A stretch of DNA of 64,000 nucleotides from Candidatus Dojkabacteria bacterium (lineage in GTDB: Bacteria; Patescibacteriota; Dojkabacteria; B142; JAFGFJ01), in NCBI GenBank assembly GCA_016931155.1, contig JAFGFJ010000006.1, forward strand, positions 141,115 through 205,114. Direction: 5' to 3'. The translations under genes were made by a program, and so were the position numbers. The notes under the pieces are model-generated. The model did no database searches and was not told where the DNA came from. It was given only the letters and a program-made list of their open reading frames with translations. Shown here one piece after another: positions 9,699-59,876 of this stretch. Each line of letters begins with the position of its first letter. Position 1 is the first letter of the stretch.

Positions 9699-9706
9699 GA
9701 AAATTT

Positions 9707-42668: not shown

Positions 42669-42735
42669 TAGTGGTATTTTGTATAAATTTTATTCTTATT
42701 GAAATACAGAAGTCGATTTCACCAGTATGATTATT

Positions 42736-43686
42736 TTACTCTGATAATTTTCCTTTAATTTTTTGTAGAGAATTAATGACTTTCGTCAGACCAGTTTTTT
42801 GAGATACCTTAATTATGTGTTTATTTTTACTAAGAATTTCAGATAATTGCTCATTTTGATTCCTTAAAGAAGTTAATTCTTCTTGCTGTTCTACTGTTTT
42901 CCTTTCTAGATTATGCAAAAAAGTTAGCCTTTCTGTGAGATCGGGAGTTTCACTATAGCTAAAGATATTTTTGGGAATTCTACTTAAAGAGCTACGGTTA
43001 GAAGTCGTCAGATTAATGTAGTTTTGAAAAGAATCCTCGGCAAGCAGATACTGCTCTTTATAATATTTTGAGAATATTCTATCTTCAATATAACTTGGAT
43101 CTAAACCTTGAGATTGGATTGCGTCAAGCAAAGAATATAGTCCACGAAAAATTACAAAATCTCTTGGAATTGGGAAATTCCAAGTCCACTCATAATCGAT
43201 GTTATAAATAATTTTTCTATTTATTGTGAAATTATCGAGGTTCAGATCAAGAATTCCTGGTTTAATCCATGCAGTCTCTTCATTTAGGTGATGGCCAAAA
43301 ATATTATTAAACTCCTTATTTATAATGGGAGGTTTTTTTATCTGATCCAATTTGTTAATAATCTCTTCAAGATAAAACTTAAATAGTTCATCTATATCTT
43401 TATAATCTCTTTGTTGAACACTCCTATACATTCTATTAAGTAGATTCTCCCCATTTATATATTTAAAAATTACTCTGTTATCAACTATGTTAGGTTTTAA
43501 TATTTGAAAGGGGAGATGGTAACTCGAAAGGAGTTTGTATTTGTTGTAAAAACTTCTTAGGAATTGTAGAGATGAAGGGAATGCAATTTTGTGTACAAGT
43601 AGGGATGTGCCATTACTAACAAAAGCAGTCATTAATCTAAACTTTTCCTTTCTATTTTGGTTATGTCTTACGTATAAAACTTTCAT
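42736..43686 (-). CDS. hypothetical protein with C-terminal coiled coil
   Basis: 316 aa. No motif recognised. Sits in the glycan locus. Confidence 0.45.
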   Translation of the reverse strand: MKVLYVRHNQNRKEKFRLMTAFVSNGTSLLVHKIAFPSSLQFLRSFYNKYKLLSSYHLPFQILKPNIVDNRVIFKYINGENLLNRMYRSVQQRDYKDIDELFKFYLEEIINKLDQIKKPPIINKEFNNIFGHHLNEETAWIKPGILDLNLDNFTINRKIIYNIDYEWTWNFPIPRDFVIFRGLYSLLDAIQSQGLDPSYIEDRIFSKYYKEQYLLAEDSFQNYINLTTSNRSSLSRIPKNIFSYSETPDLTERLTFLHNLERKTVEQQEELTSLRNQNEQLSEILSKNKHIIKVSQKTGLTKVINSLQKIKGKLSE

Positions 43687-43695
43687 ATAACTTAC

Positions 43696-44586
43696 TTATT
43701 TCTTAATACTAATTTGAGACTTTTTTGCTACGATTAGAAATGCGTTAGAAAATATGTCAAAATACCCTGATTCAATTAATTGCCTTGCGACCCTTGCCTC
43801 ATTAAATAGTTCTGTTCTGTTGGTAGAATGTTTGGATGGATATATTCCTGCCTTCGGAAGAAAATTATTTGTGGGCAGATACTGGTCACTAAATATTTCA
43901 TCAGGAAAGTGATAGTGAGGTAGGGGATAATAGAAAAAGATATCTGAAAATCCTGTATCCTTGAGCATTTTACTGATTTCATCTTTACTGTAGGTTTGTA
44001 TGCCGTTATGTTTTGGGTACCCCTCGATACTCTCAAAAAACCCTACAGTGTGATCCTCTGGAGCTCCAGCCCAGTATTTTAGTCCAAACTTATTTTCTAT
44101 GGCAAGAATAAACTCACCATTTGTCTTCATAAGAGAACAGATTTTTTTGAGTAGCGTTAAGGCTGGATTTTTTGTTTTAATAAATAACCCTGAATATTCT
44201 AAGACACCGATAGCAGTGATAAAATCATACTTACTATCCGTTTCATATTTCATGACGTCGATGGGGAAAACCTTTAAATTTTTTAACTTTTTATATCTTT
44301 CTTTTATGATTTTTGCTCTTCTATCTGAAATTTCAATACAATCTACATGTTTCACTCTTGAGGTAAAAAGTCCTGTCAGTGCTCCACAGCCCCCGCCAAT
44401 TTCAAGCAAATTACCGCTTGAATGGAAATCATACCAATTAAGTAAGTTTTCTCTTCCTGGTGACAGATGAGCTATGAAAGGCCAAATCCCTGTTCTAATG
44501 AGATTATCCCTCTTTCGCTGTGATCCAACAGATTCCAGTAAAGCTTTTTCCACTTCATCCCCATCTGAATAAACCATAGTATTCAT
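43696..44586 (-). CDS. class I SAM-dependent methyltransferase
   Basis: LEIGGGCGALTGLF (motif I), CIEIS, and a typical fold length. Confidence 0.7.
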   Translation of the reverse strand: MNTMVYSDGDEVEKALLESVGSQRKRDNLIRTGIWPFIAHLSPGRENLLNWYDFHSSGNLLEIGGGCGALTGLFTSRVKHVDCIEISDRRAKIIKERYKKLKNLKVFPIDVMKYETDSKYDFITAIGVLEYSGLFIKTKNPALTLLKKICSLMKTNGEFILAIENKFGLKYWAGAPEDHTVGFFESIEGYPKHNGIQTYSKDEISKMLKDTGFSDIFFYYPLPHYHFPDEIFSDQYLPTNNFLPKAGIYPSKHSTNRTELFNEARVARQLIESGYFDIFSNAFLIVAKKSQISIKK

Positions 44587-44677
44587 ATTTGCTTAAGATG
44601 TTGTAATGTTATCACTAACTAGGACATTAAAAAATTGAATTGCTAAACCTTTGTTAATTAGATTCACTTTAAATGTG

Positions 44678-47600
44678 CTATATACCATTTAACTCACTGA
44701 AGGAGTTATTGTATCTTACTCTTTGCGTTGTGAATATATTTTGATCGGAATAAATTATTACTGGTCCTCCAGTTTGTTCATTGTATTGTGGAGTTATAGT
44801 CTGACCGGGGTTAACTCTTCCATCAAAGATAATAACGCCTTGAACCGTGATTATTACAATCGCTGTGGAATTAATCGATGGATTCCCAATAAGAATCCAT
44901 GCCTCTCTTATAACGCCACCCCCGTCACTGTCGTCATACCATGTATAGAACTGTTTCTTGTTTAATTTATTGTTATCAATAGATTTTGTTTCATTAAAGG
45001 AGTTGATATATCTGACTCTTTGTGTCGCATATATGGGTTGCGTACTAGTTACTACTATTGAACCTGTACAACATAGCTCATCCCATTGTACTGAGTTGCT
45101 ACTATTCGCATACACATTTATTACCTTATCGGGTTGTCCTGGAATTCTTAATGTGACCGATGTGTTTGAATCATTAGGATTGCCTATTAGTATGTATGCT
45201 TCTCTATGAATGCCTCCATTTTCGCTGTCATCGTACCAAGGGAAAAAGTGATTACTTTCTATATCTGAATTAGTTACAGCCATTATTTCGTTGAATGAAT
45301 CCATAAATTTAACTCTTTGAGAAGAATAAATATTTACTGGTATACCAGTACTTTTTTCTACAGCAGTTATCTTTACAGGGCCACCTCTTTGTTCGTCAAA
45401 TTGAAAACAAGTGCTTTCTCCGGGGGATGCAGACTGTGTATGTAATATAACTTGTCCGCTTGTATTTTTGAACTGAACTGTAACATCAACGTTTGCAGAA
45501 ACAGTTTCTGGTATTCCTGCGATGATCCATGCCTCTCTTACGACTCCATCGTCACTATCATCATACCAGGGGAAGTACAGCAAATTGGCTAACTCACTTG
45601 AAGGGAAACCCGTGATTTCTTCAAATGATTCGTTATACCTTACCCTTACCGAAGAGTAGATTGGTATACCGTTAGTACTGTTAACAACAATTGGTCCTCC
45701 GGACTGTTCATTAAACTGTGGAGTGATTCTTTCTCCTGGGGCTAACGTTTGATCTATTTCCAAGACACCTTTGTACCAAACCTCTATACTAGCAACTTCA
45801 GCTTGGCTTTGGTTTGCTATTATAAGCCATGCTTCTCTTGGTATACCAATGTCACTGTCGTCATACCATGGGAAGTAGTATTTTGTATCAAGATTTCTTT
45901 CAGTATATCCTACTAAGGAGTTGTCCAATTGCAGGAGCCCGTAACCGGTTTGTGTATCAAACCCTGATGATGCTACATCTTGTGCACTGCTCCTTAATCT
46001 AATATTAATATCTATTGGTGTTATGTTCGGGTGGATACTTTTCATGAGTGCAACCGCTGCACTCACCTGAGGTGCGGCAAAACTTGTACCAATTACTGTT
46101 GTAGGTGAAGTGTTTGAAGTGAAGGCATTGAAAAGGTTTACATTCGTTTCATCTGAACAGTTGTTTTTATTGGGATAGCATGAATAAGATTGTGATGCAA
46201 TTTGGGGTCCACTATCTCCAACAGGGGCAACAAGATCCAACTCGTCTCCATAGTTTGAGTAACTTGCACGGTTGTCATTCGCATCTGTCGCTCCGACTGC
46301 TATTACATTTGGAAATGAAGCAGGGAAGTAGTTTGCAATATCCGAGTTGTCATTTCCTGCCGCAGCTACAACAACAACTCCGGCATTGACAGCGTCATTA
46401 ATTGCCACTTGCATCATAGGGTCAGTCCCGACTCCTCTGAGGCTCATGTTTATAACATCAGCACCATTTGCTACAGCATATTCAATAGCCTGTGAAATTA
46501 CGAAAGAATCAGCAACTGTCCTGTAGTCTTTGCTTGAGTTTGAACACGTAAGATCAAGATTCCCGGAAGCATCCTGGCACATTGATCTGTCATTCGGATA
46601 AAAAACTTTAATTGGCATGATGCTTGCATTGTGTGCTATTCCAATTACCTTGTTTGGTGCAGTATCACCTGTTCTCCCCGCTAGAATTGTTGTAACAAGA
46701 GTGCCATGTCCATAGTCATCATTTGCATGGTCGATTTTGGCAAGCTCATTTGCATTACAGTCATTGGCAGGATTTCCATCAATAGCTCTAAGCATGCAAA
46801 AATAATCCTGCACGGCATCATATGGACTTACAATATTTACACCACTTAATTCTGAGGATTGTGAATATTGCCTTTCATAACCTTTATAACTGCCGTTTAC
46901 GAAGGTACCATCTTGTGTATTATTTGTTGGATACTCAAGGTAGATTCCATTAAATTTTCCAACAGTATAGGAGTTATCATTTCCAGCGTCATATACATAG
47001 TTTTCATAGGATGCCCCTGTATCAAGAACAGCAACAACCACGGAGGGGTCGCCTCCACAGGAGTTGTCACTTGTACATCCTCCCATTTCTTTCCATGCCT
47101 CAGGAAGTTTGGTTTTTTCAGCTGTCCAGTGAGTAGCAGTATCATAGTCGCTAGGGATAGATCTTTCAGGGTCAGTATTGTTCCAGCTCTCAGTTTTGTA
47201 AATATAGATTGGCTGAGGATTAGTCTCGGGAGCCACAAGAAGAATCTCTCCTATGAGTTGATCTATTTTTGAATTGTCGACCTTATAGATTATTTTATTT
47301 CCGAGTTCTGCTAAGCTCTCTACACCACGTGACAGTGTTAGTAATTTTTCTTTGGTGAGTGCGTTCGATTGGGAAGAGTTGAGTGCTACCCGTGCCTTTG
47401 TTCCATCAATAATGTAGTTTCTATTGTCTATTAAATTGTTCCTTTTAGCATCAGCTGATCGAAGATTGGAGTTTAGTGGTTTCATTTGGACTGCACGAGA
47501 AGCAACAGTTTCTAGTTGATTGTAGATTCTTCCAGGACAGGCTGTTGCCGCAAGATCTCTGTGTCCGTAGAGTCCAGTTCCGCTTTTTGGGTCACCACCT

Positions 47601-48637
47601 TGCCATACTGCATTGAAATTGTTCAGTTGGGATAAAGCAGATATGAGTTTCGTGAGAGCTTCCATTGAGGCCTGTGTGGGATCCTGCGAGACATAGTTCC
47701 CAAGGATTGAGATTCCTATGCTTCCGGTGTTTGGGACTGCATGAGCACCAACAACTCCGTTTCCTCCAGATCTGCCTTCATAAATATTTCCATACGGATC
47801 AATCATGTAGTTGTAGCCAACATCAGTCCAGGTTCCTTTGCTCGGATCAGTGCAGTTTGGCCATGAACCCGAGTTATCTGAACATCTGTTGTAGTGATAA
47901 TTATAAACTGCCATTACCGTGTTTTTTGGATTTGCCATGTCAACACTTGTTGCTGTGTGATGAACAACTATGCGGTTAACATTTGCGATCGTCGGAGCCC
48001 ACGGGCTTGCTGTAGGAGCTCCCCATTCTTCTCTTGTAATGAGATCGAACCCCATTTGTGAAAATAATTTTTCCTTGTAAGCTCTTTCTGCCTGAGTGCT
48101 TGCAAATTCCTCTGGTATAGAAAAGGAAGTGTCTGAAGTGCTGTTGAATTCATATTTGCTGATAATAAATTCTTTTTCTCCATCGTAATAGAACTCTATC
48201 TCTTTAACTCCTTCTGAAAATATGAACAAATCAGAAACACTGTTCTTGCTTGTATCAAAGGAAGTGTCGTCTCCCATAAATACATCTTCGCTCTCAATCT
48301 TGAGGTACTTGGTAAAAGTATCATCTCCTTTTTTTACTCTGACTATTATTCCTTCAATATTTCCAGAGATGGAGAAGCCGTAGTAGGTTTTATCGAGGGT
48401 TTCAATTTTTGTTGGTGTGCTCCCTGAGAGGAAAATTCCTGCCTTTTGAATTAAGCCTGCTTCTTCGTATGCTTCGGGATCAGAGAGATTTGTACCTCCC
48501 ATTTTCGGGAAAGAGGAGTCTTCCGCATTTACTTTCTGAATTGGAGCAGGGGAGAAACTCAATGTCAGTACGAAGGTCAGAAAGATAATGAACAGATGTT
48601 TTGTTTTTTTTCTGGCTTCGAAAAAAGATTTATGCAA
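44678..48637 (-). CDS. secreted multidomain protein: PGRP/Amidase_2 N-acetylmuramoyl-L-alanine amidase + subtilisin-like S8 peptidase + four ~100-aa C-terminal repeats
   Basis: Signal peptide. Amidase_2: VVHHTATS, GYNYMIDPYGNIYEGR, GAHAVPNTGSIGISILGNY, ACPG. S8 triad: VAVLDTGAS, HGTLVTTILAG, GTSFAAPQVSAAVALM. Then four repeats each beginning [YF]FPWYDDSDxGxxREAWI. Confidence 0.8.
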   Translation of the reverse strand: MHKSFFEARKKTKHLFIIFLTFVLTLSFSPAPIQKVNAEDSSFPKMGGTNLSDPEAYEEAGLIQKAGIFLSGSTPTKIETLDKTYYGFSISGNIEGIIVRVKKGDDTFTKYLKIESEDVFMGDDTSFDTSKNSVSDLFIFSEGVKEIEFYYDGEKEFIISKYEFNSTSDTSFSIPEEFASTQAERAYKEKLFSQMGFDLITREEWGAPTASPWAPTIANVNRIVVHHTATSVDMANPKNTVMAVYNYHYNRCSDNSGSWPNCTDPSKGTWTDVGYNYMIDPYGNIYEGRSGGNGVVGAHAVPNTGSIGISILGNYVSQDPTQASMEALTKLISALSQLNNFNAVWQGGDPKSGTGLYGHRDLAATACPGRIYNQLETVASRAVQMKPLNSNLRSADAKRNNLIDNRNYIIDGTKARVALNSSQSNALTKEKLLTLSRGVESLAELGNKIIYKVDNSKIDQLIGEILLVAPETNPQPIYIYKTESWNNTDPERSIPSDYDTATHWTAEKTKLPEAWKEMGGCTSDNSCGGDPSVVVAVLDTGASYENYVYDAGNDNSYTVGKFNGIYLEYPTNNTQDGTFVNGSYKGYERQYSQSSELSGVNIVSPYDAVQDYFCMLRAIDGNPANDCNANELAKIDHANDDYGHGTLVTTILAGRTGDTAPNKVIGIAHNASIMPIKVFYPNDRSMCQDASGNLDLTCSNSSKDYRTVADSFVISQAIEYAVANGADVINMSLRGVGTDPMMQVAINDAVNAGVVVVAAAGNDNSDIANYFPASFPNVIAVGATDANDNRASYSNYGDELDLVAPVGDSGPQIASQSYSCYPNKNNCSDETNVNLFNAFTSNTSPTTVIGTSFAAPQVSAAVALMKSIHPNITPIDINIRLRSSAQDVASSGFDTQTGYGLLQLDNSLVGYTERNLDTKYYFPWYDDSDIGIPREAWLIIANQSQAEVASIEVWYKGVLEIDQTLAPGERITPQFNEQSGGPIVVNSTNGIPIYSSVRVRYNESFEEITGFPSSELANLLYFPWYDDSDDGVVREAWIIAGIPETVSANVDVTVQFKNTSGQVILHTQSASPGESTCFQFDEQRGGPVKITAVEKSTGIPVNIYSSQRVKFMDSFNEIMAVTNSDIESNHFFPWYDDSENGGIHREAYILIGNPNDSNTSVTLRIPGQPDKVINVYANSSNSVQWDELCCTGSIVVTSTQPIYATQRVRYINSFNETKSIDNNKLNKKQFYTWYDDSDGGGVIREAWILIGNPSINSTAIVIITVQGVIIFDGRVNPGQTITPQYNEQTGGPVIIYSDQNIFTTQRVRYNNSFSELNGI
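44681..45895 (-). repeat. four tandem ~100-aa protein repeats (FPWYDDSD...REAW...PG...GGP...QRV(R/K)...SF.E) of unrecognised family
   Basis: Repeat boundaries are about 45593-45895, 45266-45592, 44966-45265 and 44681-44965. Conserved positions are W-Y-D-D-S, REAW, PG, E(Q)xGGP, QRV and SF.E. Confidence 0.6.
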
Positions 48638-48780
48638 TTTGTGTTTTTCTTATAAGGTATTTTATCAGAAGTTTGCGTCGGATTGTAGAGGATGCATGGA
48701 TTGTACACATCTCAAATACTGAGGTGCAAACTAATTAGTCTACTAATAAATACCTGTTTTGGAGTCTAAAACCGAACAGC

Positions 48781-50964
48781 CTACCATCTTCTTAGATTTC
48801 TGATGATTTGAACGCCAGTCCTAATGAAAGAATGAGCAGGTTTAATCTTCTCTACTACCCCAAGAACTTTATCTAGTACTTTGTACCTGAGACGTTCAAG
48901 GTTCCTTTTTTGAATGGAATGCCCCTTAACATCTTTATAAAGTGATTCCTGCAAAAGTGTAAAATCATTATTAATTATTTTAGAAACACCAAGAAAACGC
49001 GTGTAGATTTTATTGTAGACTTCCTTATATTTTTCTATCATTTCTTCCAGGCTTGTAATTTTTGTACTGTCCAGATTTTTATATATTTGTCTTAACATTT
49101 TTCTATCTTTATCTATATCTAAGAGCAATCTTTTAAGATTCTTATCTGTTTCGAATGTCAGACCAAATTTATGCTTTTTTATTCTTGATCCAATTGCTCC
49201 AATATTTCTACCAATAGCTGGGATACCCAGGCTTACACTTTCCGAAAGAGTAAAGCAAAAAGACTCTGGAACTTTTGTGGGGAAGATGGAAATATCAACT
49301 TTATATTTTTCTATTAGTTTTGAAGGGTCAGAATTTGAGTACGAATCACTTGTATAGTGTATCCCTCTTTTTAGGCCTTTTTGTCTCAAATATCTTTTTA
49401 CTTCTGGATCAACGATGCCTATTAAATGCCAGGAAAATCTGTTTCTTAATTTGGTATCTGCGATTAGATTTACGAAAGTCTTGAGACCTTTTTGAAACGA
49501 GCATGGTCCAATATAGGCAATGCTTAGTTTTTTCTTTTCATGTTCAAGATTCTTGTTGGATTTTAGTAATTTTATGCCATGTTCAATTACTATTTGCTTC
49601 GTGTTTATATTTAAGACCTCGTTGTATTTCTTATAAAGATACTCTGAAGGGTAAATTATCAAATTTAATTTGGAAATTAGATTTTCTATATGACTTTTAA
49701 AACTAGAATCATTTACTTTGGAGAGAAAACCCTTTTTTGTATGTTCAATAAGTTGTTCTGCACTTGAAATTAGAAGAACATCATGTGCAGTAAAAACCGC
49801 TTTAATCCCAAGCTTTTTGTGAATACCAAGAAGGTTGATGTTTGCGTTTAGCAAATGATGAAAATGAATTAGTCCAATATTAAAAAATCTGCAAATACTT
49901 GTTATTACTTTTTCTTGAAATATTTCGTTTGCTTCATTCGTCTCATTTACTAAACTAGTGTTTAGTATTAACTTTCCTTCGGAAAAAATGTCTACAAAGA
50001 TATGATCGTTTCTGATTGATAGTGTAATAAAATTTATAGTTTTGTTCCCGTCAATTAGATGCTGAATATGAACTTGTGTTCCGCCAATCGATTCCTCAAC
50101 GTGCTTAACAAAAAGAACGTTTTGAGATTTCCTATTTAATTTTAATTTTTTGCAAAGAAAACTGGCAATTGTGGTTTGTGCATCAAGTGGATCCAGTTTA
50201 ATGTATTTATTAATATGTTTTTGGAAGTCCGGGTGTTTGTCTAATAACTTCCGCATTTTTTCTTCTGAGAAGGATTTGCCGGTCTGGAAACTGACGTTGC
50301 CTTTATGGTATATAAATGTTTTTGTATCGGCAACATTGATATAACCGGCCTTGATTGCTCGCATTGAGAAGTCATTTTCTTCACCATATCCTTTTCCAAA
50401 TGTTTCTTCATCAAAAAGCCCGACTTCTGTGATCACCTGTCTTTTGATATACATACAAAAACCTATAGCGGTGGGGATTGAAAGGATTTCATTACTTGAA
50501 GACTTTTTGGCTATATCCGACATATCTTCTATTTCAAAATCTTTTGGGAGTTCATTGTTTGTGTTTTTATTGGGGAGCGATAAGATTGAGGCATTGTTGC
50601 TCATTGGTGTGACTGTTGCAATTGAATCACTTTTATACGCTGTGATTATGAGATTTTGCAACCATCCCTTTGTTACTTCAGTATCACTATTGAGAAGTAC
50701 TACATCGTTCTTTGTAAGGGTCATACCTCGATTACAATTGCCTACAAAACCCAGATTTTTCTTATTAAAGTAGACTTTGACATTAGGGTGGCTTAGGCTC
50801 CCTAGATACTTTTTAACTCTTGAATCGGGGCTTTTGTCATCTATTAAAATTAGTTCGTATAGCTCAGCTGGAGTATTACATATGACGCTGTTCACACATT
50901 TCATCAGATACTCGTAGGCATCATAGACAGGAATTATAATAGATACTTTAGTTTTTACACTCAT
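48781..50964 (-). CDS. bifunctional glycosyltransferase (N-terminal GT2, C-terminal GT4/group-1)
   Basis: N-terminal VSIIIPVYDAYEYL...LILIDDKSPD...LLNSDTEV (GT2). C-terminal ESFCFTLSESVSLGIPAIG (Ex7E motif of GT4). Confidence 0.75.
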   Translation of the reverse strand: MSVKTKVSIIIPVYDAYEYLMKCVNSVICNTPAELYELILIDDKSPDSRVKKYLGSLSHPNVKVYFNKKNLGFVGNCNRGMTLTKNDVVLLNSDTEVTKGWLQNLIITAYKSDSIATVTPMSNNASILSLPNKNTNNELPKDFEIEDMSDIAKKSSSNEILSIPTAIGFCMYIKRQVITEVGLFDEETFGKGYGEENDFSMRAIKAGYINVADTKTFIYHKGNVSFQTGKSFSEEKMRKLLDKHPDFQKHINKYIKLDPLDAQTTIASFLCKKLKLNRKSQNVLFVKHVEESIGGTQVHIQHLIDGNKTINFITLSIRNDHIFVDIFSEGKLILNTSLVNETNEANEIFQEKVITSICRFFNIGLIHFHHLLNANINLLGIHKKLGIKAVFTAHDVLLISSAEQLIEHTKKGFLSKVNDSSFKSHIENLISKLNLIIYPSEYLYKKYNEVLNINTKQIVIEHGIKLLKSNKNLEHEKKKLSIAYIGPCSFQKGLKTFVNLIADTKLRNRFSWHLIGIVDPEVKRYLRQKGLKRGIHYTSDSYSNSDPSKLIEKYKVDISIFPTKVPESFCFTLSESVSLGIPAIGRNIGAIGSRIKKHKFGLTFETDKNLKRLLLDIDKDRKMLRQIYKNLDSTKITSLEEMIEKYKEVYNKIYTRFLGVSKIINNDFTLLQESLYKDVKGHSIQKRNLERLRYKVLDKVLGVVEKIKPAHSFIRTGVQIIRNLRRW

Positions 50965-52519
50965 GGGTATTAATTTTAAGTTGTTTTAGACTCCTATTAT
51001 ATTGAATTAGCATAACAGAATTAAGTACATATCCACTATGAGTCTCTTGTTCTATACATATAGTTTCGCTTGCTGGCAGATAAGAACTTTCAGCCAGTAT
51101 AAAATAATCATTATAAGGACTGTTATTGTATCTGATTTTATCTCTTTCCAGGATTGTAGCAACAAAAGCTGGCTCCAGGTGATTAATAATGTTTCCTTCT
51201 GAGGTGTCATATAGTTCAACGGGAAACATGATTTCTCCTTTCGCCTTTTTGTCTATTTGTGATTCGAACTTATAATATGATGCAGTTGTAATGTAGACTC
51301 TATCCCAAGTAAATAGGCTTTCCTCTCCCGTAGAAAAAAAATAACCATTGAGAAAAATTACGAATAGTATTACCCAAGTCAAAATATTTACTTTTTGGGT
51401 TTTAAACACAATTGACCATATTCCGATTGCCGAAAGAATATATACGTAGGGAATTAAATAAAGTAAAAATCTTCTATCATTCCAGTTGTACAAGAATACC
51501 CAGAAGATAACAGTGAAGAAAAAAAATAAAAAAATATTTAGACAAAGAACCCTGTGATTATACTGTTTTAACAGAATATTTATAAAGCCAATGGCTAATA
51601 GCAGCAAGAGTGGTATTCCAAATATACTGATGGCACCTGCCAGATAAAACAAAACAGAATTTGCGTGGGGAATAATTAACTCTAATTGCTTAACATTAGT
51701 ATAAAGAGGATTCCTGAATAAAAGAAATTTATATAAAAACCATGGTCCTGTAGTTATAAGGATAATCTCAGTATGGAAAAAAATCTGTTTTATGAATAAC
51801 TTTATACTTTTCTTGTCTTTTGCTTTGTTCTTAATTACTTGTTTTAAGAAGAAATCAGTAACTAATACTAATTCGTAAATTAGGATAAGGAAAAATGAAA
51901 AATTCTGAAAAGAGGTTGATATGCATAAAAACAATATAGCAAAATTACTTTTTCCCTTTATCAAAAATAGAACAGCCAGGCAAATAAATAAGATTGCATA
52001 GTAATCAGATAAAATGAAATTACTAAAGTTTTGCATCGTAAAGTTGCAGAAAAAAAGTATACTAACTGCGGAAGTTATCGCAAAAAGTACATTTGTTTTT
52101 TTAAGTTGAATTTTCCTGCCAAAAACTTCAATTGTTTGTGTCTGTTTCTCTTTTGCGGAGAATCTCTTTAGTAACCCATCAATGCATGCCCACAAGGTAA
52201 AAGTTATCCCTGCAAAAACCATTTGGTTTAAGAGAGGAAGCATTCTCAGTGTATTGACTTCTGAGAGTGCTCTAATAATAAGAGGAAGTCCGGGATTTCT
52301 AAAAGAAATTGTTGAGTTCTCTCCAAATCTTAGACCATTAGCAATCCAATCAAATCCATCTGACGTGAAGTATTTATAAGTCCTTAAGAATTCATTATCA
52401 GAATTTAAATTGGTGATCAGGAAAAATTTGGCGATTAAAATAACGACCGCACTGAGAGCGAATAAGAACAATAAATGTTTTTTGGAATTTTTTTTGAGTA
52501 GCTGATTAAGTCTGCTCAT
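50948..52519 (-). CDS. polytopic membrane protein with C-terminal soluble domain, possibly GT-C glycosyltransferase or polymerase-like
   Basis: 523 aa with more than 10 TM helices and a ~120-aa C-terminal non-membrane domain. A TSDGFDW acidic motif lies in the first loop. Architecture-based call only. Confidence 0.4.
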   Translation of the reverse strand: MSRLNQLLKKNSKKHLLFLFALSAVVILIAKFFLITNLNSDNEFLRTYKYFTSDGFDWIANGLRFGENSTISFRNPGLPLIIRALSEVNTLRMLPLLNQMVFAGITFTLWACIDGLLKRFSAKEKQTQTIEVFGRKIQLKKTNVLFAITSAVSILFFCNFTMQNFSNFILSDYYAILFICLAVLFLIKGKSNFAILFLCISTSFQNFSFFLILIYELVLVTDFFLKQVIKNKAKDKKSIKLFIKQIFFHTEIILITTGPWFLYKFLLFRNPLYTNVKQLELIIPHANSVLFYLAGAISIFGIPLLLLLAIGFINILLKQYNHRVLCLNIFLFFFFTVIFWVFLYNWNDRRFLLYLIPYVYILSAIGIWSIVFKTQKVNILTWVILFVIFLNGYFFSTGEESLFTWDRVYITTASYYKFESQIDKKAKGEIMFPVELYDTSEGNIINHLEPAFVATILERDKIRYNNSPYNDYFILAESSYLPASETICIEQETHSGYVLNSVMLIQYNRSLKQLKINTHECKN

Positions 52520-52847
52520 TGCTAATTAAATAGGGCTTTTATCATTATAGATTCAATTTCTCGTAAGATATTAGGTATATTATTCCTAATATTTTCTGTT
52601 TGCAATTTCCGGTTCTTGGTTAGTAGACGTATAACAACACTGCCTAGGAAGGCATTTTGTATTTCTAATGACTTCCAAAGGCAATTTACAATTTAGCTCA
52701 ATATGTCCACTCCTCATATGATATCCCATCAGATCAATATTTGTCGGGTTTTCGAGTTTACTCTAAACGATATTGCGACGTTGACATTACCATTTTAATT
52801 AAATACTATTCTTAAGAATTTCGCCAACTCCTTAAATTTAGAGACTA

Positions 52848-53591
52848 ATGGGAAATCTATTATCAATAATCATTCCAGCGTGGAATGAAGAAAATACTTT
52901 AGAAAAACTGGTTTCAAAGGTTAGGAAAATACGTCTTCCAGATGGAATTGAGAAGGAAATTATAATAATAGATGACTGCTCGACAGACAGGACGTTAGAG
53001 ATAATAAAGAATCTCGGGGAAAAGCATAAAGAGATCAAAGGACTTTCAAACTTAAAAAACAGCGGAAAATCGCAAACCGTAAAGAAAGGTATCCTTGCTT
53101 CAAGTGGTGATTACGTTGTTATTCAGGACGCAGATTTAGAATATGAGCCGGAAGAAATTCCTGAGATGCTTAAACTGTTGATAGATAAAGAATACGATGC
53201 CGTATACGGAAACAGATTTGGAAAGAAGAATAAGGTCATTTACTGGCAGAACTATTTTGGAAATAAAATGTTGACAGTCTTCTCAAATATCTTTACTTTT
53301 CCGAAACTAAAAACGTGGATACCGGATATGGAGGTCTGCTATAAATTAGTGAGAGGAGATGTAATGAGACAGATAGCAAAGATGATCGTATCGACAAGCA
53401 GGTTTGGACTCGAACCAGAAATTACTGCAAGACTTGCCTCATATAAATCAAGGGGAAAAAGAATAAAACTTGGCATACATCCTATTAGCTATTATCCGAG
53501 ATCAATTCAAGAAGGGAAGAAAATGAATGCGCTCAAACACGGATTTGAAGCACTGGTAGAAATTATAAAGTTTAATCTTCTTAAGAATTAG
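52848..53591 (+). CDS. GT2 polyprenyl-phosphate sugar synthase (DPM1/GtrB-like)
   Basis: LSIIIPAWNEENTL, IIIIDDCSTDRT and VVIQDADLEYEPEEI are typical of dolichyl/undecaprenyl-phosphate mannosyl/glucosyl transferases. Confidence 0.8.
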   Translation: MGNLLSIIIPAWNEENTLEKLVSKVRKIRLPDGIEKEIIIIDDCSTDRTLEIIKNLGEKHKEIKGLSNLKNSGKSQTVKKGILASSGDYVVIQDADLEYEPEEIPEMLKLLIDKEYDAVYGNRFGKKNKVIYWQNYFGNKMLTVFSNIFTFPKLKTWIPDMEVCYKLVRGDVMRQIAKMIVSTSRFGLEPEITARLASYKSRGKRIKLGIHPISYYPRSIQEGKKMNALKHGFEALVEIIKFNLLKN

Positions 53592-53615
53592 TTTTGCTCT
53601 GGTTTTTGTATCCCA

Positions 53616-54140
53616 CTATTTATAGGGTGCTTTTTTCCTAACCAGTAAAGTTTCTGATTCAGGATATGAGAATAGAACCTCAACTTCTTTTTCATTTATG
53701 TCCTTTCTGAATACATAGGATAATTCTTCGCCTCTGTTTTTGTCCGTGTCGATGTTGTTTGTTTCTATGTAGTCTAATTTAAACTTCTCTATGTAATAGT
53801 GTACTGGAGGTGCTAATCTCCAGTTCGTAGACAGACTGATCTTATTGTTGCTCTCATTAAGACTCAAAGTCTTTACATCAGTGATCATATTTTTCACATC
53901 ACAATTACTTTTCCAGGAGATTGTATAAGTAAAATTAATTGAAACCAAAGATATAATTAGAATAAAACCGGCTAATGCGTAACCTGAAAAGAGTGCACAC
54001 TTTTTTGCAGTATTTGTGAGCAAAGTCAGTGAGTTCAGTGCACTTACGAAACAGAAGAAAAATAAAGGAATTAGAAATATTGCTGTTCTCTCGATCAAGA
54101 ACTTTGTTCCAAGTATGTGGTGTTGAAGGATTGTACTCAA
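53616..54140 (-). CDS. membrane protein, likely C-terminal part of a frameshifted GT-C-like glycosyltransferase
   Basis: Two or three TM helices, then a ~100-aa soluble domain. The reading frame stays open upstream to 54311 and encodes further TM helices, overlapping the end of ORF 54245-55099. Confidence 0.45.
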   Translation of the reverse strand: MSTILQHHILGTKFLIERTAIFLIPLFFFCFVSALNSLTLLTNTAKKCALFSGYALAGFILIISLVSINFTYTISWKSNCDVKNMITDVKTLSLNESNNKISLSTNWRLAPPVHYYIEKFKLDYIETNNIDTDKNRGEELSYVFRKDINEKEVEVLFSYPESETLLVRKKAPYK

Positions 54141-54244
54141 AATACATATTGTCAGAATCGCAGTGGTTGAAATAACCGGATAATTCTTTTTGGATAAATT
54201 TTTACTTACGAGATAAAGGGTGGTAATAGAAGTAATAATATATA

Positions 54245-55099
54245 TCAGAAAATTAAAATGGTAAGTATTGTTTCGTGAGTTGGAGATAAATTGAATTTGT
54301 AAAGAGACGCTCTAACAAGAGAGCCAATGGTATCAGAAACAAAGTTGTTATCACCCCCATAATAAAGCAACTTTCTCTTTACGACCCTCCCCAAGGGGAT
54401 AAGTATTGATAAGAATGTTGTAACAGTAATTATTATTATTGGATAGCTGTTATATAATATTTTTTTCACTCTACCAAAAAAATTCTGTTTCATCCTTATG
54501 TTTTCAAATATAGACAGGCAAAATAGAAAGGAAATCAGAGCAATGAAATAATTCAATAATGTAAAGTTGGTTAATACCGAAAGCCAGCTCGTTATAAGAC
54601 TGGCGAAAAGATAGATCCTCTTTTTTCGGTTCGATAAATATTCGATAAGAAAGTAAACGCTTGAAGCAACGAGTCCTGCCGCAAGTGCATAACCTCTTGC
54701 CAGGGAGAAAAAATCGAGGAGAAATATGTTTAAGTTTAGGAGTATAAAAGAAGTTATTTTAGCAGTTTTGCTTTTTACAAATTTTTCAACAAAAATGAAA
54801 GTGAAAAATAAATAAAGAAGGTGACCGATAAGACTTGGAAGTCTTAAGACAAATTCTGTGTTTCCAAAAAAGTTGTAAAAGATTTTAACCAATATGGTAT
54901 TTACAATGTGATTATTTGCGATTTCTGCCGAAAAATTATTTGTAAGGATATCGAAAATATTTGTATGTACAAAAGTTTGAAATGTATATGCTTCGTCAAA
55001 AGTCAGAGAAAGATTGATTGCTCGATAGGTTGTGTAAGTAAAAAGTATTATTGAGATTAACACCATCGTGAACTTTACAGGAGAGATTCTCATTTGCAA
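54245..55099 (-). CDS. membrane protein, likely N-terminal part of a GT-C-like glycosyltransferase
   Basis: 284 aa with 8 or more TM helices. LTFDEAYTF in the first loop resembles the GT-C DE motif. It ends abruptly inside a hydrophobic segment. Confidence 0.45.
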   Translation of the reverse strand: MQMRISPVKFTMVLISIILFTYTTYRAINLSLTFDEAYTFQTFVHTNIFDILTNNFSAEIANNHIVNTILVKIFYNFFGNTEFVLRLPSLIGHLLYLFFTFIFVEKFVKSKTAKITSFILLNLNIFLLDFFSLARGYALAAGLVASSVYFLIEYLSNRKKRIYLFASLITSWLSVLTNFTLLNYFIALISFLFCLSIFENIRMKQNFFGRVKKILYNSYPIIIITVTTFLSILIPLGRVVKRKLLYYGGDNNFVSDTIGSLVRASLYKFNLSPTHETILTILIF

Positions 55100-55271
55100 A
55101 CTTTTTAATATAATTCTGTAAGACTGTCAGTGCTGGAAAAGCGGTCACCAGTAAATCTACTTTTTTCTTTGCTGTTCAAATAGGTTTTCAGCCCTTTGTA
55201 GATTGGAGTATTCTACCAGACAAGTGCCATACAGGTAAGTAAATGATGTAAAACAAAAATTATTTTTCGCA

Positions 55272-55634
55272 TTGAAATATTCCAACAAAAAGGGTATTAT
55301 CCGAATCCGTATATCTTTATTCTATAAGTTAGCCAACAAAACAGTGGGTCAGAAAATTGTTGATGCAGGAAAATGTGACTACTGCAGAGATAGAAAAAAA
55401 GCAGTTTACTACACAGGACTATATTCTCAAGATGAGGATTTAATGGAAATACACTGCAATACTTGCAGGGCATCCTGGGAGGCGGATGGCACTCCTAGGG
55501 CAATACCATCACAATCAAAATTGGAGCAGTTGGGAGTGTTTAGTGAAGTTGTAGAAAATAGTTTGCCTTTTACTCCAGGAACCAAAGGTGAATGGTTTTG
55601 CAATTATGTGGGATCAGCAGAAGCTTTGGGTTGA
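55272..55634 (+). CDS. hypothetical zinc-ribbon-like protein
   Basis: CDYC...CNTC pairs spaced about 25 aa apart. Weak; may not be expressed. Confidence 0.3.
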   Translation: MKYSNKKGIIRIRISLFYKLANKTVGQKIVDAGKCDYCRDRKKAVYYTGLYSQDEDLMEIHCNTCRASWEADGTPRAIPSQSKLEQLGVFSEVVENSLPFTPGTKGEWFCNYVGSAEALG

Positions 55635-56909
55635 CCTAATCTTTTGATCCTTCTGTATTTTAGATGCAAATATCCAATACCCAAAAATCAATCCAGCCGT
55701 TACAGACAGCACCCCTAATTGTACATTGACAATTTCCCCGATACTCGAATGATACTGGCTTATCAAAAATATTTGTGCAACTATGGCTATAGTTGCCACC
55801 ACTACGTGCCCTCTTTTGTTGATTGCTATGAGGTAGCTGTGGAAGATATTAATAAAAGAAAGCATTACCATAGCTAGACCAAACTTTCCTATGTATTTGG
55901 CAGTTTCTTTGAAAGAATCACCGTAAAGAAGCCTTACCATAAATTCAGGGAAGAAAACATAGAGTAGTAAAACCGAGGCAACAGCTAAAGTGGCGACCAT
56001 CAATACTGAAACAAAGTTACTTTCGTAATTGCTACCTTTGTTTTTTGCCTTTACGGTAGCCGGGATAATGGCATTTCCAATGCTTGCAGAAAGAAAAAAT
56101 ATTACCCGTCCAAGAATTGAGGTGCTTGCATATATTCCTGATTCGTGGTCTGTCAGATAATGTTTCGCCAGAATAACATCAGCAATCAGAAAAATATTAA
56201 TTGCTGAAGACACAAGAAGTATTGTGAAAAATTCTTTTATATCAAAACTGATTTTTATTTCTTCAATTTTTTCCTTGATTATTTCTTTTATACTGAATAG
56301 TGCATATAATAATGAAACGATACTCCCGGCTACGAGACCTGCTAGAGCACCTGGTGTTTTGAATCCTTGAGTTACTAAAAGCGTTCCTATAAACAATCTA
56401 AATAAAATCTCTATCACATATGCGATAGCGAGTTTTTTGTATTTCTCCAGTCCAAGAAGAACACCAAATAGAATTGACTTCTCAGTCATAAACAGCAGAT
56501 AGGCAAGAATTATTAAATATGACGACGAAGATTCTATTCTCAGGAATTCTTTTAATGAAGGGATCAGGAATATCATTAGTATTCCGATCGCAATTGTTAT
56601 CAGAAAAACAATTTTGCTGAGATGAATTATGAAATACTTCATCCTGTCCTTTTCATTTCTGGAAGCAAGGTCAGATATGTTTTTCGCTGAGAATACTTGT
56701 AAGGCTGTGGCAGGAAGTGTGATGACATAGGTGAGTGAAGCAAGAGCTACAAAATTTCCATATTCAGTGGTTCCTAAAAGGTTTCCAAGGATCAATTGAA
56801 ACAGGTAAGTCCCGAAGTTAACTATCATGGTAGCGGAGAAGAGAATTGCACTGCCTCTGATTAGAGTGTTTGATTTTAGAGAATTTATTTTCTTGAAAAT
56901 TCTGTTCAT
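55614..56909 (-). CDS. oligosaccharide/polysaccharide flippase (Wzx, MOP superfamily)
   Basis: 431 aa, about 12-14 TM, with a Wzx-like N-terminus (NTLIRGSAILFSATMIVNFGTYLFQLILGNLLG). Confidence 0.7.
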   Translation of the reverse strand: MNRIFKKINSLKSNTLIRGSAILFSATMIVNFGTYLFQLILGNLLGTTEYGNFVALASLTYVITLPATALQVFSAKNISDLASRNEKDRMKYFIIHLSKIVFLITIAIGILMIFLIPSLKEFLRIESSSSYLIILAYLLFMTEKSILFGVLLGLEKYKKLAIAYVIEILFRLFIGTLLVTQGFKTPGALAGLVAGSIVSLLYALFSIKEIIKEKIEEIKISFDIKEFFTILLVSSAINIFLIADVILAKHYLTDHESGIYASTSILGRVIFFLSASIGNAIIPATVKAKNKGSNYESNFVSVLMVATLAVASVLLLYVFFPEFMVRLLYGDSFKETAKYIGKFGLAMVMLSFINIFHSYLIAINKRGHVVVATIAIVAQIFLISQYHSSIGEIVNVQLGVLSVTAGLIFGYWIFASKIQKDQKIRSTQSFC

Positions 56910-57007
56910 AAAGATATTTTACTGTCTGGTTATTGAGTTGTCCCCAACAACACGATAGTACTCAAAAACTAATAGAAAAAAAAGTAAGCCGGATAATAAA
57001 GAGGCTT

Positions 57008-57499
57008 TCACTTTTTCTTTACTCTAAACACAAAAAACTTGTAAAAGAGAAAACTGGTAATAAGCTGGATAGATGTTGCGAAAAATTTTGCAAGGAGTTT
57101 GTTGCCATCATCCCCTTCTACAAAACCAAAAGTTTCCCGGAGATTTTCTGAAATGAGACTCGCTATATTTAAGACTATGGCACTGACGTTTATTGCCACG
57201 AAAAGAAGAAGGAATAAGTTGTTTGAAAGAAAATTAAATCCCTGAACGAGCATAAATTTCCCGAATTCCAGTGCGACTTTCTTTTCTTCACTTTGCCAAA
57301 CCCAGAACCGGTTGATCACGTAGTTTACGACTATTGCAATGCTAACGGAAATAGAGTTGGCCAAAAGGAATGGGAGTCCAGCTTTTACCCCGATCGAGTA
57401 CAGGGCAAAATCAATAGCAAAAGCGGTTATCCCTGTAATAAAGAATTTGATAAAGCGAGGAGTGAAAAAAGTGTCTTTAACCTTTTTTATTATATTCAT
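57008..57499 (-). CDS. GtrA family membrane protein
   Basis: 163 aa, 4 TM. RFIKFFITGITAFAIDFALY...VNYVINRFWVW matches the GtrA pattern. Confidence 0.75.
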   Translation of the reverse strand: MNIIKKVKDTFFTPRFIKFFITGITAFAIDFALYSIGVKAGLPFLLANSISVSIAIVVNYVINRFWVWQSEEKKVALEFGKFMLVQGFNFLSNNLFLLLFVAINVSAIVLNIASLISENLRETFGFVEGDDGNKLLAKFFATSIQLITSFLFYKFFVFRVKKK

Positions 57500-58205
57500 T
57501 GAAATTGTATTTTGTGAGCCTGATTTTAATCAATTCCGAGAGTGTTTTAAAGTAGTGGAAGGGTTTTACCTTGCTGTCTTCTTTGTGTTCCCACTTTACG
57601 GCAAGCTCTTTTATTTTATAACCCAGCCTTTGTGCGAGGTATAGGATTTCAAAGTCAAAGCCCCATCTCTCAATTTTCTGCATGATAAAAAGCTTCCGGC
57701 ATTTTTTATTGAAGAGTTTGAATCCTGCCTGAGTGTCTTTTATATCTTTGACTAAAATTGTGTTAATAAGAAAATTTCCAACTCTACCCATTACTTTACG
57801 TGGAAGAGAAGTGTTAACTTTTGAATTTGCCATTGCGCGTGAGGCAATTACAATATCGTATTGATCTTTGTACTTTAAAAATTTATCAAGCTCTTCAATA
57901 GGGGTAGAAAGATCACTGTCGCAGAGGTACATATAGTCACCTTTAGCAGCAAGCATTCCTGTTCTGGTAGCATATCCCTTTCCACGGTTCGGCTGATATT
58001 CAAGACCTATGATTTTTACATTTTTTCTCTCGTGTTTCTTTATGAAATCAATTACAACTTCGGTAGTTTTGTCTTTTGAACCGTCACTAACTACAATTAT
58101 TTCACTTTCAAAATTTTTCTTCCCCAAAAAACAGAAGATTTCCTCAAGTGAAGGACGTAGTCTTTTTTCTTCGTTGTAACAAGGGATTACTACTGATAAA
58201 AACAT
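57477..58205 (-). CDS. GT2 polyprenyl-phosphate glycosyltransferase (GtrB/DPM1-like)
   Basis: FLSVVIPCYNEEKRL, IIVVSDGSKDKT and YMYLCDSDLSTP. It overlaps the GtrA-like gene by 23 nt. Confidence 0.8.
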   Translation of the reverse strand: MFLSVVIPCYNEEKRLRPSLEEIFCFLGKKNFESEIIVVSDGSKDKTTEVVIDFIKKHERKNVKIIGLEYQPNRGKGYATRTGMLAAKGDYMYLCDSDLSTPIEELDKFLKYKDQYDIVIASRAMANSKVNTSLPRKVMGRVGNFLINTILVKDIKDTQAGFKLFNKKCRKLFIMQKIERWGFDFEILYLAQRLGYKIKELAVKWEHKEDSKVKPFHYFKTLSELIKIRLTKYNFNEYNKKG

Positions 58206-58320
58206 TCTATGGTTAATAAATGCATAACTTCTTTGCTTATGCGTACTATTTTATCTATAGATCGAATGAGCGCCAATATCAAGGAAGTATATATTATTCC
58301 GGTTTATTTGAAAAACTCAA

Positions 58321-59700
58321 CTATTTGCCCGTCTTGCTGTATTCTTCCCCAAGAAGACTAGAAAATAACTGGACTTTCTCTGAAACCAGATTTTCATCTT
58401 TAGCTTCAATGCTGAGTCTCACAAATGGCTGAGTATTTGACTCTCTCAAGTTGAATCTCCAGTCAGTAAAATCGAAAGAAATCCCATCTATTTCATTATA
58501 CTTTCCCTCTTTGAATTTATCTTTTAACATTTCAAATATCGCCTTCGTATCTTTAATCTCAAAATTTATCTCTCCGCCTGTAGGATATTTTTCGTAATAG
58601 TCATCACAAAGTTCAGAAAGTTTCTTTTCGCTTTCTGAGAGAAGTTCGAGCATAAGGGCAATTGTAACCATACCCGAATCCCAGAAAAAATAATCTCTGT
58701 AATACATATGTGATGTCGTCTCAAATCCGAAAAGTGCGTTGTATTTTTGCATAGCTTCGCGCATGAAACTTCTTCCGGATTTTGACATGACAGGTATTCC
58801 TCCTGCATTAGAGATTTCTTCATGGGGTGCCCAGATGAGTCTTGTATCGTGAATAATTTTTGGCTTTTCTACTTTTTCTTTTCTTATCAGGTGGGAAGCG
58901 ATCAGGGGACCAGTGTAATAACCACTTGGAGCTCTTCCCTTACTGTCGATAAACGATGCTCTGTCGGCATCTCCATCAAAAGCAATTCCAAAATCAGCAT
59001 TCAAACTTTTTGTTTTTTCTCTAATTTCCCTTATATTTTTTTCTTCTGCGGGATTGGGTGGATGATTCGGAAAACTTCCGTCCGGTTTGAAATGCATCCT
59101 CGTAACATCGAGAGGTAAACCAGCAAAAACTATATCAAAAAACTTTCCTCCAAGCCCGTTACCTGCATCAACAACAACTTTGAGATCTCGTATTTTCTCT
59201 ATATTTATAAAACTCAAGACTTTTTTCCTGTAATCCTGTATCAAATCTTTGTTAATGATTTTTCCTTTCGGAGGACGGGACGGGAAGTTGTTTTCAATGA
59301 TTATTTTTTTAATTTTCTCGAAGCCTGTATTTCCTGCCACAACTGAAGCATTTGCTCCTACTATTTTTGCTCCATTATATTCTTCCGGATTGTGAGAAGC
59401 GGTAACAATAACGGTGCCATCAATTTCTTTCATGCTTGCGGCAGAGAAGTACCCGATCTCGGTGATAATCTCTCCAAGAAAGTAAACGTCGCATCCCATA
59501 TCTGTAATTCCTTCTATGAGAGCCTTTGAGAAAGGTCTGGAAGACTGCCTCATGTCAATTCCTACAGCAATAACTTTTGCATTCCAAAATTTGACGAGAG
59601 CCTTACCTAGGTTTAGGTAGAAATTTTCGGTCAGCTCTTCTCCAATTATTCCACGGATATCGTAGGCGAGAAATATTTTATCAAGAAGGCTTTTGTCCAT
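58321..59700 (-). CDS. phosphomannomutase/phosphoglucomutase
   Basis: TASHNPEEYNGAKI (active-site Ser), GIAFDGDADR (metal-binding) and GGEINFE. The track ORF extends to 59796, but MDKSLLDKIFLAYDIRG at 59700 is the conserved start. Confidence 0.85.
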   Translation of the reverse strand: MDKSLLDKIFLAYDIRGIIGEELTENFYLNLGKALVKFWNAKVIAVGIDMRQSSRPFSKALIEGITDMGCDVYFLGEIITEIGYFSAASMKEIDGTVIVTASHNPEEYNGAKIVGANASVVAGNTGFEKIKKIIIENNFPSRPPKGKIINKDLIQDYRKKVLSFINIEKIRDLKVVVDAGNGLGGKFFDIVFAGLPLDVTRMHFKPDGSFPNHPPNPAEEKNIREIREKTKSLNADFGIAFDGDADRASFIDSKGRAPSGYYTGPLIASHLIRKEKVEKPKIIHDTRLIWAPHEEISNAGGIPVMSKSGRSFMREAMQKYNALFGFETTSHMYYRDYFFWDSGMVTIALMLELLSESEKKLSELCDDYYEKYPTGGEINFEIKDTKAIFEMLKDKFKEGKYNEIDGISFDFTDWRFNLRESNTQPFVRLSIEAKDENLVSEKVQLFSSLLGEEYSKTGK

Positions 59701-59761
59701 AGGGCAAGTATATTTGAATATACAATCGGTGTAAATTAACCTGAAAAATGAAAACAATTCA

Positions 59762-59876
59762 TAAACCTGTAATTGAAGCTCGTAGAGTATTGGCAAAATC
59801 AGGCTTAAATTTGCGATTTAAGCTCACAGAATCTTGGTATAACCAATCTTAAACCTGCAAGTGAAGTACGTAGAGT
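59762..59876. promoter_or_regulatory. 27-bp imperfect direct repeat pair flanking an 8-bp-stem hairpin, upstream of the phosphomannomutase gene
   Basis: taaacctgtaattgaagctcgtagagt (59762-59788) and taaacctgcaagtgaagtacgtagagt (59850-59876) match at 23 of 27 positions. GCTTAAAT-ttgcg-ATTTAAGC sits at 59803-59823. Confidence 0.35.

Follow-up and report, generated by a model that had tools for sequence, protein, structure and literature searches.

Glycosyltransferases of the GT-C(A) class combine seven conserved N-terminal transmembrane (TM) helices with a variable C-terminal module; their first outer loop contains two short helices, the first of which bears the acidic catalytic base, whereas the contacts to the donor phosphate come partly from later loops (PMC13503287). 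We studied a gene of this general appearance in a genome of Candidatus Dojkabacteria, within a stretch of 64,000 nucleotides (64 kb) that is referred to as the window. The initial annotation, made from the DNA sequence, had described positions 53616-55099 of the minus strand as a GT-C-like membrane glycosyltransferase split by a frameshift. Our comparisons support the view that this region holds one ancestral GT-C gene, and that a frameshift has split it. The split gene is an ordinary broken gene, the result of either a recent mutation or a consensus error, and no special recoding device is involved. It is a 1-nt break in an enzyme of a known kind, and a specialist will find nothing surprising in it.

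Split gene and its homologues

The two open frames, their overlap and the neighboring genes are listed in Table 1. Coordinates and frames of both ORFs agree with those given earlier, including the upstream extension of frame B to position 54311, where it is bounded by a TAG codon (54314-54312). ORF A stops in the middle of a transmembrane helix, at a TGA codon in positions 54247-54245, and has the C-terminus THETILTILIF (the last residues before the TGA are ...SPTHETILTILIF). Frame B is open across the overlap, reading ...NFLIYIITSITTLYLVSKNLSKKNYPVISTTAILTICIL... / ...YHFNFLIYIITSITTLYLVSKNLSKKNYPVISTTAILTICILSTILQHH... The coding strand of the overlap reads ...ACC ATT TTA ATT TTC TGA TAT ATA..., and no homopolymer in it is longer than the two T4 runs found at 54258-54255 and 54252-54249. 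Since frame B is displaced by -1 from frame A, either one missing base or a -1 slip is required to connect them.

Table 1. Open frames, overlap and probable lesion site of the split gene, with the genes of the surrounding cluster (positions in the window)
Feature	Position	Strand	Remarks
Wzt-type ABC ATPase	41463-42668		
Methyltransferase	43696-44586		
Amidase plus subtilase	44678-48637		1319 aa
GT2-GT4 fusion	48781-50964		
Polytopic protein	50948-52519		523 aa; family unassigned
GT2	52848-53591	+	247 aa; convergent with the GT-C gene; Pfam PF00535, 7.8e-33
Frame B	54311..53616	minus	-1 relative to ORF A; 231 open codons
Overlap with both frames open	54311..54245	minus	67 nt; the frame switch necessarily lies inside
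Likeliest site of the missing base (best fit), ATTTTCTGA	54252-54247	minus	A-TTTT-C-TGA; T4 at 54252-54249
ORF A	55099..54245	minus	284 aa from TTG; 282 aa from ATG at 55093
Wzx-like protein	55614-56909		
GtrA-family small membrane protein	57008-57499	minus	Pfam PF04138, 1.7e-17, positions 1-117 of 117
Second small GT2, GtrB-like	57477-58205	minus	242 aa; Pfam PF00535, 5.7e-25
PGM/PMM	58321-59796		

The first 57 codons of frame B contain no ATG, GTG or TTG, and this startless leader is the longest among the ~55 open frames of the 64-kb window. The first start codon is TTG at 54140; the first ATG, at 53888, is the start of the deposited JW796_02415. In the deposited record, ORF A is JW796_02420, a 282-aa "hypothetical protein", and exact look-up finds frame B only as JW796_02415, a "hypothetical protein" of 90 aa.

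We compared both frames to a profile built from 77 homologues, with the window protein left out. ORF A covers profile positions 7-272 with a score of 284 bits. Frame B scores 134 bits over positions 265-477, and its match sets in at residue 17 of the frame (profile position 265), i.e., inside the startless leader. The 231 open codons of frame B in DNA of 34% GC, together with its profile score, far exceed what is expected by chance.

The joined product has 494 aa. When it was used as a query, one entry was 100% identical, namely the 282-aa JW796_02420 [Candidatus Dojkabacteria bacterium], on a contig of 559,650 bp. There were 118 homologues at 22-35% identity, mostly 477-511 aa in length, and the closest of them span 94-99% of the joined sequence; no orthologue more than 35% identical was found in the collections searched. 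Alignments of 20 and of 78 sequences show the homologues collinear, and ungapped, through the junction. In the 78-sequence alignment, residues D35, E36, H64, R86, R135, G136 and Y137 are invariant before the junction, R338 is invariant after it, and W396 and Y436 are near-invariant. Among the 20 closest homologues, Q326 is invariant and H327 nearly so. The first-loop motif FDEAYTF, reported earlier, is indeed present in ORF A (as LTFDEAYTF), and its acidic pair is the invariant D35/E36.

A scan of GTDB species-representative genomes revealed 503 loci that encode relatives, mostly in Bacteroidota MAGs. Of these, 80 loci were kept, and they do not include the source genome; a locus was counted as single-frame when one tblastn segment extended from query residue <=60 to >=430. 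In this comparison with relatives, which the initial annotation had suggested, the gene has one reading frame across the junction in all 80 of the kept loci. The reading as a single gene is based on the collinearity of both halves with one profile, on full-length homologues, on the 80/80 single-frame loci and on a confident predicted fold (see below), and the frameshift proposed in the initial annotation is borne out by the first three of these. As judged from these alignments, a single GT-C glycosyltransferase is the source of both fragments, JW796_02420 and JW796_02415.

Class and predicted structure of the protein

Neither half of the gene product, nor the repaired protein, matches any Pfam or NCBIfam model (for PF13231, there is no match even at E<=1), and the family profile has no meaningful chain match among PDB sequences. 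Therefore, the family assignment was drawn from homologues and from structure. PF13231 (PMT_2) is matched by 32 of the 78 family members at E<=0.01, with a best E of 1.9e-9. The comparison to GT-C HMMs that had been suggested thus gave a divided result: the window protein is without a match, and 32 of 78 homologues match PMT_2. Several homologues bear a precomputed PF13231 label, and one has the UniRef name "Glycosyltransferase RgtA/...". The window protein itself would belong to PF13231 through transitive homology only.

The AlphaFold2 model of the repaired 494 aa, computed with the 78-sequence alignment, has a mean pLDDT of 94.9 and a pTM of 0.94. It consists of a polytopic helical domain, in which an unbroken helix (residues 273-300) spans the break at 284/285, consistent with the earlier remark that ORF A ends abruptly inside a hydrophobic stretch. 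In the model, frame B holds the rest of the broken helix, TM helices 304-330, 343-359 and 363-387, and a C-terminal alpha/beta domain (~400-494). The prediction of a joined protein of ~490 aa with a TM part and a C-terminal domain is thus in good agreement with the model. The figure of eight or more TM helices in ORF A fares less evenly, as the model places approximately eight membrane helices, and half of a further one, in ORF A, whereas only six segments exceed a Kyte-Doolittle value of 1.6.

In the model, TM1 (7-29) is followed by two helices of the first outer loop (34-42 and 48-52), and the invariant D35/E36 open the first of them, which is the arrangement described for the first outer loop of GT-C(A) enzymes. 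A Foldseek search against PDB returned GT-C proteins at all of the ranks 1-27. The top match is ArnT (5f15; E 9e-7, TM 0.51/0.48), and the other GT-C matches include STT3/PglB/AglB, DPY19, ALG9/12/3, AftA/B, EmbA/B and Pmt1/2/4. Non-GT-C matches (unrelated transporters) begin at E 0.045, with TM 0.11. The structural similarity thus points to the GT-C(A) class as well. Taken with the PMT_2 matches of the homologues and the invariant DE motif, these results uphold the original description of a GT-C-like membrane glycosyltransferase, and they support a product of the GT-C(A) class, of the PMT_2 / RgtA-D-like kind. Assignment to ArnT (GT83) proper was considered and rejected: there is no ArnT match in Pfam or NCBIfam, no PDB chain is found with the profile, and the identity is 8%. 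Production of lipid A is not known from Dojkabacteria.

Probable lesion site and its predicted consequence

A 1-nt repair was introduced at each position of the overlap and scored against the profile. The score climbs steadily from 411.6 bits for a repair at the upstream end, reaching 428.2 bits at 54252-54247, where the added base yields ...ILTILIF-LIYIITS... (...ILTILIFLIYIITS...). The likeliest lesion is the shortening of T5 to T4 at 54252-54249; this placement should be regarded as a best fit only, because the gradient amounts to 16.6 bits in a poorly conserved helix. The initial annotation had cast suspicion on short A runs. The relevant runs, however, are the two T4 runs of the coding strand, i.e., A4 on the plus strand. 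An indel in the (AT)4 just past the TGA was rejected as a candidate, since it would lie downstream of the frame-A stop and would be unable to restore the frame.

The order of modules in the GT-C(A) class implies that the frame break lies past the conserved module and deletes the variable module, with R338 and Q326-H327. The loss of one base within TM helix 273-300 would cause translation to end at the TGA after 284 residues, and the truncated product would stop short of the final three and a half TM helices and would have neither R338 nor the C-terminal domain. Such a product is presumably inactive. Since translation would end after 284 residues, the glycosylation step is presumably lost.

Genomic context and proposed pathway

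The GT-C gene is embedded in an envelope-glycan cluster (Table 1). The gene for the second GT2 and the GtrA gene overlap by 23 nt. The 247-aa GT2 matches the NCBIfam models of AglJ, PgfS, ArnC and dolichyl-P-hexose transferase, all below threshold; the match to the ArnC model (3e-15) is far below the cut-off of that model. By sequence, this protein resembles synthases of the polyprenyl-phosphate-sugar type (DPM1/GtrB/ArnC-like). In ~29-30 of the 80 loci, an orthologue of this GT2 (40-43% identity, full length) is located no more than 6 kb from the GT-C homologue, and in 12 of those ~29 loci the orthologue lies on the same strand, <=800 bp downstream. By clustering, GT2 is the most frequent conserved neighbor of GT-C homologues (34/80 loci). 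The 523-aa polytopic neighbor has no detectable paralogy to the GT-C protein (hhalign probability 16%) and no sequence match in PDB; it could be a partner of the other GT2.

We propose the following pathway for the intact enzyme. The adjoining GT2 would load a sugar on undecaprenyl phosphate at the cytoplasmic face, as suggested by the context. The lipid-linked sugar would then be flipped across the membrane, with GtrA as a candidate flippase, and the GT-C enzyme would move the sugar to some envelope acceptor at the outer face, with D35/E36 of loop 1 as the proposed catalytic base. We infer the use of a polyprenyl-phosphate-linked sugar donor from the conserved GT2 adjacency and from the presence of GtrA, the second GT2, the Wzx-like protein and PGM/PMM nearby.

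Origin of the frameshift

The two ordinary causes of a broken gene are a mutation in the organism and an error in the consensus. We lean towards a real, very recent inactivating deletion in the sequenced population. The deletion would have to be recent because the 231 downstream codons are open and every conserved residue of the family is retained. An error of sequencing, assembly or polishing is a credible explanation, although the less probable one; here, the organism would carry an intact 494-aa gene, and the consensus would have dropped a T from T5. The fully open frame B and the retention of all family-invariant residues, as if the gene were intact, fit such an error, and so does a best-fitting repair that alters a homopolymer by one base. 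In addition, the source is a metagenome-assembled genome, and such a consensus can mix strains. It should be noted that the absence of further decay in frame B is predicted by an error and equally by a very recent mutation.

What speaks against an error is the quality of the rest of the consensus. There is no other split gene among the ~55 open frames of the 64-kb window, and the full-length profile matches in the window include RecA, RuvX, PNPase, MurJ, ApbE, PGM and others. Runs of A or T are frequent: 875 of 4 nt, 386 of 5 nt and 199 of 6-9 nt. The lack of another split gene despite hundreds of longer homopolymers, among them the 199 runs of 6-9 nt, suggests that the consensus is not indel-prone. 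Furthermore, NCBI and Logan both list the same truncated products, i.e., identical 282-aa and 90-aa fragments, and an intact allele is absent from 5.8 billion clustered proteins. The Logan listing gives one contig in total, and it may not be an independent observation. For contigs encoding either fragment or three neighboring genes, no independent copy of the locus is on record, and the JGI metagenome contigs contain no match to a 26-mer taken from the gene.

Surface-glycan genes are often subject to on/off switching, and phase variation, in which a hypermutable tract toggles the gene within the population, had been offered as an explanation. The gene does belong to a surface-glycan cluster, and the likely site of the indel is a homopolymer. 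Contingency loci, however, need tracts of roughly 7-8 nt. The longest run in the overlap is T4 (twice), well below that length and nothing special in a window with 875 A/T runs of 4 nt and 585 longer ones. We regard phase variation as a very improbable account of this locus.

A programmed -1 frameshift is likewise hard to defend. At A-UUU-UCU-GA, the P-site tRNA-Phe would slip from UUC to UUU while UGA occupies the A site. Re-pairing of this tRNA on UUU is feasible, CUG would be read next, and the product would be the best-scoring repair. A stop codon in the A site is known to stimulate P-site slippage, e.g., in B. subtilis cdd. On the other hand, frame A contains no X XXY YYZ heptamer, so that just the single-tRNA slip is possible. 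The 113 nt from the site fold with -7.9 kcal/mol, compared to -7.75 kcal/mol for shuffles (z -0.06), and there is no SD-like stimulator upstream of the site, an absence that tells little in a genome in which none of 13 well-supported genes is preceded by an SD motif. The shift is not conserved either, as 80/80 of the related loci kept are single-frame, and TGA is the ordinary stop of other genes in the window. The programmed shift that had been listed among the possible causes thus finds no backing in a heptamer, in downstream RNA structure beyond that of shuffles or in conservation, and we assign it a minimal probability. In its most novel form, this idea would have a stop-stimulated slip of tRNA-Phe at AUU-UUC-UGA yield a little, possibly regulated, full-length GT-C protein in this CPR bacterium, with neither a canonical heptamer nor a stimulatory structure, and it is equally improbable.

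The deposited annotation has two CDS, and accordingly one might suppose two separate genes, with products acting apart or as a split enzyme. We consider this scarcely believable. Frame B is startless for 57 codons, yet its leader aligns from residue 17; a product initiated at TTG 54140 would begin inside a TM helix (profile position 310), whereas the 90 aa of the annotation comprise just the tail of the C-terminal domain. Among the 80 related loci kept, there is no split homologue. A Shine-Dalgarno (SD) motif is absent before ORF B, but this is uninformative, since none of 13 well-supported genes has such a motif. A promoter-like match at 54264-54235 is at chance level, and the counts from promoter and terminator scans are likewise.

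Reading of TGA as a sense codon (code 4/25) was rejected, because frame A meets TAA 12 codons on, the homology runs on in frame B, and other intact genes terminate at TGA.

A real deletion would mean that a step of envelope glycosylation was lost very recently in this Dojkabacteria population, a point of some interest for a lineage whose members are believed to live attached to host cells. The value of the analysis is mostly in annotation: JW796_02420 and JW796_02415 should be merged or flagged as a pseudogene. In addition, an uncharacterised family (503 loci, mainly in Bacteroidota) now has a confident structural model. The family is marked by its distinctive C-terminal domain and by its conserved association with a GT2 partner.

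Comparison with described systems

Like other frameshift pseudogenes and consensus indels of metagenome-assembled genomes, this locus has a single 1-nt break in a short homopolymer, two halves homologous to one family, and an annotation as two hypothetical proteins. The fragments are collinear (profile positions 7-272 and 265-477), and frame B is without a start of its own. There is no feature here that distinguishes the locus from such cases.

As in the GtrA/GtrB/Gtr(type) and DPM1-PMT pathways, the cluster has a small GT2, a GtrA-family protein and a GT-C transferase, and the adjacency of GT2 and GT-C is kept in relatives. Unlike these pathways, the cluster contains two GT2 genes, and either of them is a candidate partner of the GT-C enzyme. 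The comparison to ArnT (GT83; PDB 5f15/5ezm), the best structural match, shows a similar size and a predicted GT-C(A) membrane core, and arnT, too, has a GT2 partner, ArnC, which supplies the undecaprenyl-P-sugar donor; however, the two proteins share 8% identity when aligned by structure, and no PDB chain is matched by sequence. With the PMT_2 family, the window protein shares a polytopic membrane architecture whose first outer loop bears an acidic DE motif, whereas its own family is set apart by a C-terminal alpha/beta domain of ~95 aa.

Envelope-glycan cluster and its uncharacterized members

The GT-C gene lies in a contiguous envelope-glycan cluster that includes a Wzt ABC ATPase with a Wzt_C domain, a methyltransferase, a 1319-aa amidase_2 and subtilase protein, a GT2-GT4 fusion, two small GT2s, GtrA, a Wzx-like protein and PGM/PMM. 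The cluster is slightly AT-richer than most of the window, where GC is mostly 0.35-0.40: GC is 0.31-0.34 over 42-44 kb and 48-56 kb, with a peak of up to 0.42 at 46-48 kb.

Features of the window and of a related locus
Feature	Coordinates	Strand	Remarks
Envelope-glycan cluster	41463-59796		contiguous
Polytopic membrane protein, 523 aa	50948-52519	-	between GT2-GT4 fusion and GT2
ORF, 120 aa	55272-55634	+	two Cys pairs (CDYC ... CNTC)
HEPN + Pol-beta nucleotidyltransferase fusion	22869-23696		
Open frame, 108 codons	23725-24051	+	just downstream of HEPN fusion; contains no ATG, GTG or TTG
Example locus L053 with the polytopic family of roughly 476 aa near the GT-C homologue	7647-9041 and 9038-10459 (locus coordinates)		example locus

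The 523-aa polytopic protein had no match in Pfam, NCBIfam or PDB sequences, and by hhalign (probability 16%) no kinship to the GT-C family was detectable. Its role could be that of another GT-C-like transferase, or of a polymerase or ligase in the glycan cluster. It should be noted that a second polytopic family, of roughly 476 aa, was found near the GT-C homologue in 17 of the best 80 of 503 related loci. The 120-aa ORF fills the gap between the start of the GT-C gene and the end of the Wzx-like gene, on the strand opposite to the GT-C gene, and may encode a small zinc-ribbon protein or may be no gene at all.

Start-less frame and translation initiation

Outside the cluster, the 108-codon open frame is possibly the remnant of a gene. 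In Pfam it matches the GDSL lipase PF13472 weakly and below threshold (E 1.3e-4), over the C-terminal part only (positions 97-175 of 178). A Shine-Dalgarno-like motif (AGGA, GGAG or GAGG) was found within 25 nt upstream of none of 13 well-supported genes at 42-62 kb; this genome apparently does not depend on SD-led initiation.

Relatives and possible origin of the GT-C/GT2 pair

Among the best 80 loci, drawn from species-representative genomes, a class-A PBP and two CoA-transferase subunits recur near the GT-C homologues (23 loci each), which probably reflects synteny within the lineage, not a functional connection. The nearest relatives of the GT-C gene (31-35% identity) and of its convergent GT2 partner (40-43%) are almost all from Bacteroidota, and a single CPR-labelled bin (L034, "Saccharibacteria") is present in this set. 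This distribution points to horizontal acquisition of the pair, or else to rarity of the family in CPR.
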